Sequence record: PZ386970.1
DNA: 64,000 nucleotides
Source: a phage
Reading direction: 5' to 3' (one strand)
Within the stretch, counting starts at the first letter, position 1; every line of letters begins with the position of its first letter. The translations under genes were made by a program, and so were the position numbers. The notes below the pieces were generated by a model. It had not been told where the DNA came from and did no database searches. It saw only the letters and a program-made list of their open reading frames with translations. Shown here one piece after another: positions 47,690 through 48,500 of the stretch.

Positions 47690-47980
47690 TCGGGGTTCCA
47701 CCTGCTAAGGCAAGTGTTTGTACGAAACGCCGGGATTTGAACCCGGTTATTAAGTAGTTGACGCTACTCAATATTTTTAAAAGGCCATATCTCGACCATA
47801 TCCGAACGTTCCGTCAAAAACGCTACTCGGCTTACGGCAAAGATATTTCCTCGAATCGATAATTCTGTGCGCCGTTTCTGCTGTGATGTAAGGGGATATT
47901 AACAAATCATAAAGATTTATTAAGACCAGTCCTTACTCAGGGAACATCAGTCCGACGACTTGCCGGTAGCGACCCGGCTT
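47690..47980 (-). ncRNA. ORF-free region adjacent to the tRNA genes; candidate small stable RNA(s) or degenerate tRNA
   Basis: ~290 bp with no ORF >=60 aa; minus strand contains a canonical T-arm-like CCGGG-TTCAAAT-CCCGG and a possible 7-bp acceptor pairing (CGGAACG/CGTTTCG) ~95 nt apart, but no clean cloverleaf. Confidence 0.3.
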
Positions 47981-47981
47981 C

Positions 47982-48326
47982 TTATTTTGGCATATCATCA
48001 ATTTGTTCTCGACGCCTACGCCATAGATTAATCGCTTCATTGACACATTCTGCGTTTGGTATATGACGGCAATAATATAATGATTCGCGTTTCTGGAACC
48101 GATGTTGCAACGGGATTTCGTTTAAAAGGTCTTTACGGTCAAAGTATTCAAAACTAGTTAACCCGGAACGGTTTTTAAGAAACTTCCAATGTCCGAATTC
48201 ATTTTGAAAATAAACATAATCAGCATGCTGATACAGCGAATTAATTAACCTATCGGAAATAACTGTTTCACGTTCGTTAAAATAAAACGTTAAATCATGA
48301 ACTACCAGATAAACATTGCCTTTCAT
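47982..48326 (-). CDS. Hypothetical protein downstream of the tRNA genes (start at MKGNVYLVVHD)
   Basis: ORF-track frame 47982..48374 trimmed because its first 16 codons overlap the tRNA-Arg gene; GAGGAAAAT RBS before the internal ATG. Confidence 0.5.
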   Translation of the reverse strand: MKGNVYLVVHDLTFYFNERETVISDRLINSLYQHADYVYFQNEFGHWKFLKNRSGLTSFEYFDRKDLLNEIPLQHRFQKRESLYYCRHIPNAECVNEAINLWRRRREQIDDMPK

Positions 48327-48344
48327 ATTTTCCTCACTTGAAGT

Positions 48345-48421
48345 TGGTCGAGACAGAAGGATTCTAACCTTCAACCTACGGATTAGAAGTCCGTTGCTCT
48401 ATACAATTGAGCTATGCCTCG
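48345..48421 (-). tRNA. tRNA-Arg (anticodon UCU)
   Basis: Manual cloverleaf: acceptor GGAGGCA/TGTCTCG (G1-G72 mismatch), D-arm GCTC…GAGC, anticodon stem ACGGA/TCCGT with loop CTTCTAA, T-arm GAAGG-TTAGAAT-CCTTC, 3' ACCA. Confidence 0.7.
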
Positions 48422-48425
48422 GATT

Positions 48426-48500
48426 GGTGACCCTGGCTGGTTTCGATCCAGCTACCTATCAGTTATGAGCTGACAGCTCTCCCATTGAGCTACAGGGCCT
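48426..48500 (-). tRNA. tRNA with CAU anticodon (Met, or Ile if lysidine-modified as in T4 tRNA-Ile)
   Basis: Manual cloverleaf: acceptor GGCCCTG/CAGGGTC, D-arm GCTC-AATGGGA-GAGC, anticodon stem GTCAG/CTGAT with loop CTCATAA, T-arm GCTGG-ATCGAAA-CCAGC, 3' ACCA. Confidence 0.8.

Follow-up and report, generated by a model that had tools for sequence, protein, structure and literature searches.

What does a T-even phage encode in the DNA that follows its transfer RNA (tRNA) genes, when only two of these genes are present and no protein-coding gene is evident next to them? The question is raised by a 64,000-nucleotide (nt) stretch of phage DNA (record PZ386970.1; hereafter the window), which belongs to a Mosigvirus, an RB69-like T-even phage, and in which all of the genes discussed here lie on the minus strand. 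Between the stop codon of one open reading frame (ORF; 47982) and the start of the next (47597) lies a stretch free of ORFs, 47981-47598. A preliminary description of the window gave its length as about 290 bp and considered it either a degenerate tRNA or a homologue of the small stable RNAs of the T4 tRNA cluster; the lack of convincing ORFs stands, but the length is 384 nt. We hold with high confidence that the two tRNAs are intact, that the ORF-free DNA is orthologous to rnaD and rnaC of phages T4 and T2L, and that rnaC is a conserved, tRNA-shaped RNA. This confidence covers identity and structure; the decoy mechanism considered below is rated separately. Across the locus the closest relative is Escherichia phage FP43 (Mosigvirus shsm521; 96.7% identity), with JS09 and HX01 next.

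The second of the two explanations proved correct. The alignment of the ORF-free stretch with T4 covers 90% of the stretch at 92.8% identity and falls exactly on the annotated rnaD (species 2 RNA) and rnaC (species 1 RNA); the stretch aligns as well with T2L, in whose record the same two RNAs are annotated after the ORF trna.2, in the order trna.2-rnaD-rnaC. The coordinates used here were transferred from the T4 and T2L annotations by a three-way alignment. Taken alone, the stretch matches 806 phage records, with 80-99% identity across approximately 800 of them, from at least nine genera. Judged by sequence and position, this instance is a member of the T4 rnaC and rnaD families and is hence already known. 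Rfam 15 contains no family for rnaC and none for rnaD, and a search of 47000-49200 at E≤10 returned nothing for either, its matches to isrK, C0719 and a snoRNA being at chance level. In most T-even genomes both RNAs are left unannotated; elsewhere they appear as a hypothetical protein, as tRNA-OTHER, as tRNA-Lys or as a 95-nt tRNA-Met, with examples of such mis-annotation in PG7 (locus L003, 2551-2645), G9062 (locus L063, 870-965) and H76.

The better characterized of the two is rnaC, which occupies 140 nt (47719-47858, minus strand) if the ends of the T2L record are used; those of the T4 record correspond to 47859-47721. The T2L ends were preferred because C47858 pairs with the 3′ strand of the acceptor stem and is preceded by a U, as cleavage by RNase P would give. 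The sequence is identical to that of T4 at 139 of 141 positions (98.6%) and, like T4 species 1 RNA, it lies in the tRNA cluster, on the strand of the tRNAs and downstream of tRNA-Arg. Strand, place (between rnaD and the terminator) and fold are as in T4 rnaC, whereas the T-loop, UUCGAAU in T4, is UUCAAAU in the window and in T2L, and the upstream context differs, an ORF separating tRNA-Arg from rnaD as in T2L. The predicted fold has a minimum free energy (MFE) of -50.2 kcal/mol (z=-4.6); its 5′ end pairs with its 3′ end and it has three arms.

BLAST searches with divergent members revealed homologues that carry rnaC without rnaD, wedged among tRNA genes with spacers of 4-6 nt, in the genera Karamvirus, Tegunavirus, Kagamiyamavirus, Moonvirus, Winklervirus, Kanagawavirus and Marfavirus; scans of IMG/VR and of metagenomes added a few further rnaC homologues. 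A covariance model (R1) built from 15 rnaC homologues recovers each homologue at 95-164 bits, and in the window it gives a single match, at 162 bits. Relaxed patterns run against IMG/VR and the metagenomes produced 11 and 12 extra loci, respectively, all of which the covariance model rejected. With the 15 sequences, RNAalifold found compensatory change at 28 of 43 rnaC pairs. In the larger set assembled for covariation, which comprises 24 distinct homologues and represents at least nine genera, 94.7% of the cells of the structure are paired and 32 of the 50 modelled pairs have changed on both sides. In 500 column shuffles this level of covariation never arose, and registers slid by 1-3 columns gave 34-44% paired.

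The structure so supported resembles part of a tRNA. Its acceptor stem of 7 bp (5′ strand 47858-47852, 3′ strand 47729-47723) consists of C1-G, G-C, A/G-U/C, U.U, U.U, C-G and G-C; in Tegunavirus all seven pairs are perfect, the U.U positions having become U-A and C-G. The long arm (47851-47782) starts from a D-stem-like helix of 3 bp (AGG/CCU), which encloses an irregular hairpin of about 60 nt with the tip loop UUGACG (47817-47812), and a conserved GG (47786-47785) stands right before the CCU. A single-stranded, A-rich linker is also present. The anticodon-like arm has a 10-bp stem and a 6-nt loop of the form C-NNN-AA, that is, an anticodon loop without U33 (CGUCAA, 47763-47758), and the variable region is a single base. 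The T-arm (47746-47730) has 5 bp, with G53-C61 and a UUCRAAU loop; it is the perfect T-arm CCGGG-UUCAAAU-CCCGG that the preliminary description had seen, and it lies inside rnaC. At the 3′ end an unpaired U (47722) is followed by ACA (47721-47719), where a tRNA has N-CCA.

The most distinctive feature is found in the loops. Read in reverse complement, the tip loop of the long arm (UUGACG) gives exactly the anticodon-like loop (CGUCAA), and the complementarity ends at the loop edges. All six pairs of this putative helix are intact in each of the 24 sequences, with no one-sided change: most members have UUGACG/CGUCAA, Tegunavirus has UUGAUG/CAUCAA and Marfavirus UUGGCG/CGCCAA, so that compensatory changes have occurred at two different positions in two unrelated lineages. 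Relaxed pattern searches of IMG/VR and the metagenomes turned up no variants beyond these three. Because both loops change together in two lineages, we conclude from the comparison that they pair with each other in a loop-loop kissing contact. The anticodon-like triplets are GUC, AUC and GCC, and the partner loop holds the matching codon; since the triplet varies between lineages, we do not read the loop as decoding. TTGACG was also considered as a -35 box in the DNA, and this was rejected, as a suitably spaced -10 element is absent and the two loop sequences change together in a complementary way, which favors pairing in RNA. In Karamvirus and Klebsiella phages (loci L007, L031 and L015) the long arm of about 60 nt has been swapped for an unrelated hairpin-forming sequence in which the UUGACG loop is kept. 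Set against the openly available literature, the comparative structure of rnaC, and the loop-loop contact above all, may be new.

Several details of rnaC vary among its relatives. The encoded 3′ tail is U-CCA in the Klebsiella Marfavirus homologues only (loci L032, 401-542; L059, 3422-3563; and L042), U-UCA in Tegunavirus and U-ACA elsewhere. The T-loops UGCAUUC and UGCAUGC occur in Kosakonia phage Kc304 (locus L037, 407-548) and Enterobacter phage IME523 (locus L034, 318-459), and these two phages, alone among the members, have changed the GG before CCU to CG. The joint alteration is suggestive of the G18:U55 elbow contact having turned into a C:G pair, likely in a single evolutionary event. 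In rnaC of the T4/Mosigvirus type, the 9-mer GAGUAGCGU is present twice (47828-47820 and 47768-47760, minus strand), on the 5′ side of each of the hairpins that bear the pairing loops; as the 9-mer is not repeated in other genera, this is probably a coincidence or a lineage-specific duplication. The T-arm (47730-47746, minus strand) contains an 11-bp T-stem-loop motif, GGTTCAAATCC in the window phage and T2L and GGTTCGAATCC in T4, which in tRNA genes is recognized by the T4 homing endonuclease SegB (PMC2330249).

A second, internal acceptor pairing was tried and rejected. CGGAACG (rnaC nt 47-53) can pair perfectly with CGUUUCG (nt 131-137) in the window, and this is probably the possible acceptor pairing of the preliminary description; the pairing exists there, but it has no compensatory support across the homologues, with zero compensatory pairs, below the shuffles, and it is broken in four lineages, among them Tegunavirus, Marfavirus and the variant-arm members. 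The same pairing underlies the 95-96-nt tRNA-Met, tRNA-OTHER and tRNA-Lys calls of annotators. In the true acceptor stem the 5′ strand is supplied by the start of rnaC, some 130 nt upstream. Comparison of the 3′ 25 nt of rnaC with phage tRNAs gave weak, register-sensitive top matches to tRNA-Asp(GUC), which are uninformative on ancestry.

How close, then, is rnaC to a tRNA? With canonical tRNA (RF00005) it shares a 7-bp acceptor stem and, stacked with it, a 5-bp T-stem, both covarying, a 7-nt T-loop of the sequence UUCRAAU, the pair G53-C61, a GG so placed that it could touch the T-loop, and one unpaired base followed by xCA; like tRNAs, it also sits among tRNA genes with tRNA-like spacers. 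Unlike a canonical tRNA it has no D-arm, having instead the 3-bp stem with its hairpin of about 60 nt, its 10-bp stem carries a 6-nt loop, and its variable region is 1 nt long. Neither ARAGORN nor Rfam (none at E≤10) recovered a cloverleaf that has a D-arm and an anticodon loop of 7 nt, and the encoded tail is U-ACA rather than NCCA. By the tests run, rnaC is not a tRNA but resembles the top half of one. The preliminary description had likewise seen no complete tRNA in the stretch, and this holds: ARAGORN reports none there, and no Rfam tRNA match appears even at E≤10.

Two other RNAs are alike in principle only. YrlA (RF02553), a bacterial and phage Y RNA-like molecule, is a non-decoding RNA that mimics the acceptor, T-arm and elbow of a tRNA and on which tRNA enzymes act. 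It has no match on rnaC or rnaD, the sole YrlA match (E=5) lying on the true tRNAs, and the topology is opposite, as the ends of rnaC form the acceptor stem whereas those of YrlA form a Ro-binding stem; we know of no Ro/Rsr partner in E. coli K-12. The pRNA of phage phi29, like rnaC, is one RNA with two mutually complementary loops that covary between relatives, but it has no sequence relationship to rnaC and no Rfam match in the window at the gathering score or, over 47000-49200, at E≤10. In phi29 the loop pairing is intermolecular and builds a ring on the portal; to our knowledge, packaging of the T4 type does not need an RNA.

Immediately 5′ of rnaC lies rnaD (47866-47985, minus strand), mapped from the T4 and T2L annotations and assigned to T4 species 2 RNA by its orthology and this position. 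It folds with an MFE of -39.3 kcal/mol (z=-3.9) into a 5′ hairpin of 5 bp (47978-47962; loop GUCGCUA) and a long hairpin that is closed by the 3′ end and has a variable tip. Its consensus fold has compensatory change at 10 of 38 pairs. The first ~50 nt and the last ~30 nt of rnaD hardly vary, and from phage to phage the tip of the long hairpin is exchanged for other sequence, with compensatory changes. This is also how it compares with T4, where the 5′ hairpin and the basal helix are the same and the tip differs in sequence, again with compensatory changes. In T4, rnaD begins 1 nt after tRNA-Arg, whereas in the window and in T2L it begins on the stop codon of an ORF. We have found rnaD only in loci of the Tequatrovirus and Mosigvirus types.

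Across the 64-kb window ARAGORN found exactly two tRNAs, and these are also the only matches in it that reach an Rfam gathering score. They are a tRNA with anticodon CAU (48425-48499, minus strand; RF00005, 59.4 bits) and a tRNA-Arg(UCU), which reads AGA (48345-48421, minus strand; RF00005, 71.1 bits, full alignment); both have an encoded CCA. The presence of two adjacent tRNAs with CAU and UCU anticodons, and of a tRNA at 48345-48421 in particular, thus agrees with what had been described from the sequence. Two details of that description do not survive, because it had begun tRNA-Arg one base late, at G48420. Its G1-G72 mismatch is a C1-G72 pair in the cmscan alignment, in which the acceptor stem is fully paired (C1-G72, G2-C71, A3-U70, G4-C69, G5-U68, C6-G67, A7-U66), and the spacer between the tRNAs, given as 4 nt, is 3 nt (AUC), from the end of the encoded CCA at 48425 to C1 at 48421. 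The suggested match to the last two tRNAs of the T4 cluster is right for the anticodons but not beyond them, tRNA-Arg being 42% identical to that of T4 and 74% to that of T2L.

The tRNA with the CAU anticodon is 68% identical to T4 tRNA-Ile(CAU), with which it shares the acceptor stem GGCCCUG and the anticodon loop. That stem, GGCCCUG/CAGGGUC, contains C4-G69 and C5-G68, as in the lysidine-type tRNA-Ile2; these pairs are determinants for TilS, the lysidine-forming enzyme. On these sequence features the molecule is most likely a lysidine-type tRNA-Ile decoding AUA, and not a tRNA-Met. Nolan (2006) assigned the CAU tRNA of every tRNA-bearing T4-like phage to this type (PMC1524935). Codon counts over 59 long ORFs from the window give 11.0 per 1000 for AUA and 7.0 per 1000 for AGA. 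AUA and AGA are the two rarest sense codons of E. coli, and the phage uses them several-fold more often than E. coli does; the pair of tRNAs would supply AUA and AGA decoding to the phage. Mosigviruses are reported to carry exactly these two tRNAs, of equal lengths and likewise with a 3-nt gap (PMC12898486).

Between tRNA-Arg and rnaD is an ORF of 114 aa (47982-48326, minus strand), the counterpart of T2L trna.2, which matches PHROG 3355 (E=2.3e-50, residues 1-113). Its ATG at 48326 is preceded by GAGGA (Shine-Dalgarno sequence and ATG at 48335-48324). The ORF track had shown a version of 130 aa with a TTG start (47982-48374) that overlaps tRNA-Arg; the preliminary description took this N-terminal extension for an artefact, as is borne out by the end-to-end match of the shorter version to PHROG 3355, by the 345-nt coding sequence of FP43 and by the position of T2L trna.2. 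Scanned against Pfam, neither the 114-aa ORF nor any of its neighbors gave a match above threshold. The stop codon of this ORF lies inside the first bases of rnaD. The ORF is present in the window phage, in T2L and in some relatives, and elsewhere it is absent and tRNA-Arg abuts rnaD (loci L011 and L012 were among those compared); by sequence, the ORF behaves as an insertion/deletion cassette.

The layout as a whole is that of the T2L subcluster (AJ880101; Met(CAU)-Tyr-Asn-Arg-trna.2-rnaD-rnaC), which matches the window in gene order and in its ORF, minus two members: T2L tRNA-Tyr and tRNA-Asn are missing, so that the CAU and Arg tRNAs stand 3 nt apart. The upstream Gln-Leu-Gly-Pro-Ser subcluster of T2L is not present in the window. 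We propose that the locus would constitute one minus-strand unit, a minimal version, of Mosigvirus type, of the T-even tRNA operon, with the tRNA genes at its 5′ end, followed by the 114-aa ORF, rnaD, rnaC, and a structured trailer with an intrinsic terminator. Its transcription would run from a candidate MotA-type promoter to the terminator at 47669-47642.

The candidate promoter (48562-48587, minus strand), read from the sequence and judged against the consensus of T4 middle promoters, has TTGCTTTA (48587-48580), a 12-nt spacer and TATTAT (48567-48562), and looks like a MotA-dependent middle promoter of T4; a scan for sigma-70 promoters did not flag this site. It overlaps the stop codon of an upstream 174-aa ORF, about 60 nt ahead of the first tRNA, and a leader hairpin, AAAGGUGC...GUGCCUUU (approximately 48541-48518), lies between it and the tRNAs. 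At the other end a conserved 3′ trailer of about 77 nt (47642-47718, minus strand; fold z=-3.0) begins with the hairpin CACUUGC-CUUA-GCAGGUG (47716-47699; 7 bp), 2 nt past the 3′ end of rnaC, continues with further small hairpins and ends with the predicted intrinsic terminator GCCCCUUCCGAAAGGUUGGGGC followed by U6 (47669-47642). Owing to internal mismatches in its stem, the minus-strand terminator escaped the promoter and terminator scan, which flagged the rnaD hairpin on the wrong strand; for the terminator we have relied on the fold. The trailer is near-identical in T4, T2L, the window phage and relatives in IMG/VR, and the DNA past the terminator is unrelated. This conservation of the trailer exceeds what a terminator alone would explain.

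The spacer between rnaD and rnaC, 6-7 nt long in the transferred annotations and here GAAUUAU (47859-47865, minus strand), has an invariant AAUUA in all eight sequences compared and places a U at -1 of rnaC. It fits both the RAUUW motif of RNase E and the preference of RNase P for U(-1), and by analogy it is likely an endonuclease entry site. RNase E would cut in the AAUUA, RNase P would cut at U(-1)/C(+1) of rnaC, and 3′ exonucleases would trim the short trailers, so that the tRNA-maturation enzymes of the host would release both rnaD and rnaC. Older work with rne mutants reportedly observed an rnaD-rnaC precursor. T-even tRNA precursors with spacers of less than 5 nt are known to be substrates of RNase P (PMC11143913).

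The function of RNAC and RNAD is stated in the literature as unknown (PMC3014915, PMC9697503), having gone unassigned since the 1970s. T4 RNAC accumulates late in infection, as a discrete stable RNA of about 140 nt seen on Northern blots (PMC9697503). The tRNA region is non-essential in laboratory hosts (PMC2330249), tRNA deletions have been published to lower phage growth on other strains, and phage tRNA arrays have been tied to escape from tRNA-cleaving defences. The sole recent functional lead on the T4 species 1 and 2 RNAs is one convergent single-nucleotide polymorphism (SNP) in rnaD, which raised the virulence of a T4-like phage on the semi-permissive strain ECOR34 from 0.17 to 0.98 (PMC12685909).

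We infer that rnaC does not decode, because the loop equivalent to an anticodon is too short and is masked by its partner. The RNA would present just the acceptor/T-arm/elbow face of a tRNA, which most tRNA-handling proteins recognize. As this is the only face it shows, rnaC would therefore most likely occupy a tRNA-binding factor, and we tentatively suggest, by analogy, that it could be a decoy or sponge for such a factor of host or phage, host-dependent and non-essential. A more elaborate version is more doubtful still: rnaC might be a tRNA mimic that masks itself, a codon-like graft in the D-loop pairing with the anticodon-like loop of the RNA itself, be it intramolecularly or hand in hand between molecules to give dimers or chains like those of phi29 pRNA, and it might thereby sequester a tRNA-directed host factor, such as a defence nuclease that targets tRNA or a modifying enzyme of tRNA 3′ ends. 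The pair rnaD-rnaC would then be a determinant of host range or counter-defence in T-even phages.

Other explanations of the stretch have to be set against these readings. It might be a functionless tRNA pseudogene decaying in a shrinking larger cluster, the degenerate remnant of the preliminary description. The reduction of the cluster relative to T2L and T4 would fit, as would a perfect T-arm without a cloverleaf that tRNA finders accept, and parts of the stretch have indeed been annotated as tRNA-OTHER, tRNA-Lys and a 95-nt tRNA-Met. A decaying sequence would hardly keep 80-99% identity in some 800 phage records spread over at least nine genera (98.6% to T4 in the case of rnaC), nor compensatory change at 32 of 50 modelled pairs, including those of the long arm and of the loop-loop helix, which have no place in a tRNA; T4 RNAC has moreover been detected as a discrete RNA, and we regard decay as extremely improbable. 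The same very low rating applies to the notion, adopted in many GenBank records, that the stretch encodes small proteins. ORFs of 34-54 aa do overlap it on both strands, and hypothetical proteins are annotated beneath the match in many records. These ORFs, however, have TTG starts without a ribosome-binding site and vary between records; indels of 1-2 nt among the homologues (140-143 nt) would shift any frame, and the substitutions track base-pairing rather than codon periodicity.

Less easily dismissed, though still unlikely, is a purely cis-acting role, in which rnaD, rnaC and the trailer form a structured 3′ end that stabilizes the upstream tRNA/ORF transcript and guides its processing, and the stable RNAs are by-products. 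In Tequatrovirus and Mosigvirus the elements are always at the 3′ end of the unit, just ahead of the terminator, the trailer is highly conserved, and laboratory growth does not require the region. On the other hand, rnaC occurs in the middle of a tRNA array, and without rnaD, in Karamvirus, Kagamiyamavirus, Tegunavirus and others, and its two loops, tRNA elbow features and N-C-A tail are conserved beyond what a stabilizing hairpin would need. It is very improbable, finally, that rnaC is a chargeable tRNA-like adaptor that undergoes CCA repair and aminoacylation and acts in translation or peptide tagging. Its 7-bp acceptor stem, discriminator-like U and canonical T-arm would suit such an adaptor, the Marfavirus homologues encode a 3′ U-CCA, and the loop C-GUC-AA resembles the anticodon loop of tRNA-Asp. 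Most members, however, encode ACA or UCA rather than CCA, there is no D-arm, and the 6-nt loop lacks U33 and sits on a 10-bp stem; it is complementary to the loop of the long arm and covaries with it, and the anticodon is GUC, AUC or GCC depending on the lineage.

The orthology of the stretch with rnaD and rnaC, and a tRNA-shaped rnaC with pairing loops, remain the reading that we favor, and several observations weigh against parts of it. Support for the loop-loop helix comes from two covariation events, with four of its six pairs constant throughout; by sequence alone, an intramolecular contact fits as well as an intermolecular one, and the long arm is so much longer than the anticodon-like arm that an intramolecular contact needs sharp bends. 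Most members have the two U.U mismatches in the acceptor stem, the non-canonical T-loops of Winklervirus and Kanagawavirus indicate that the T-loop sequence is not strictly required, and the RNA ends transferred from T4 and from T2L disagree by 1-2 nt. The published adaptive SNP sits in rnaD and not in rnaC. The processing enzymes and the decoy role, for their part, are drawn from analogy and from older literature.

For a T-even phage the element is an ordinary one, and it touches on an RNA that has gone unexplained for 50 years. If the pair rnaD-rnaC were a determinant of host range or counter-defence, as on the reading of rnaC as a self-masking mimic of tRNA, this would explain the convergent mutation in rnaD that unlocked growth on ECOR34. 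The comparative model, with its tRNA-shaped core, its D-loop hairpin and its 6-bp loop-loop contact, gives precise mutations for functional tests of these RNAs.

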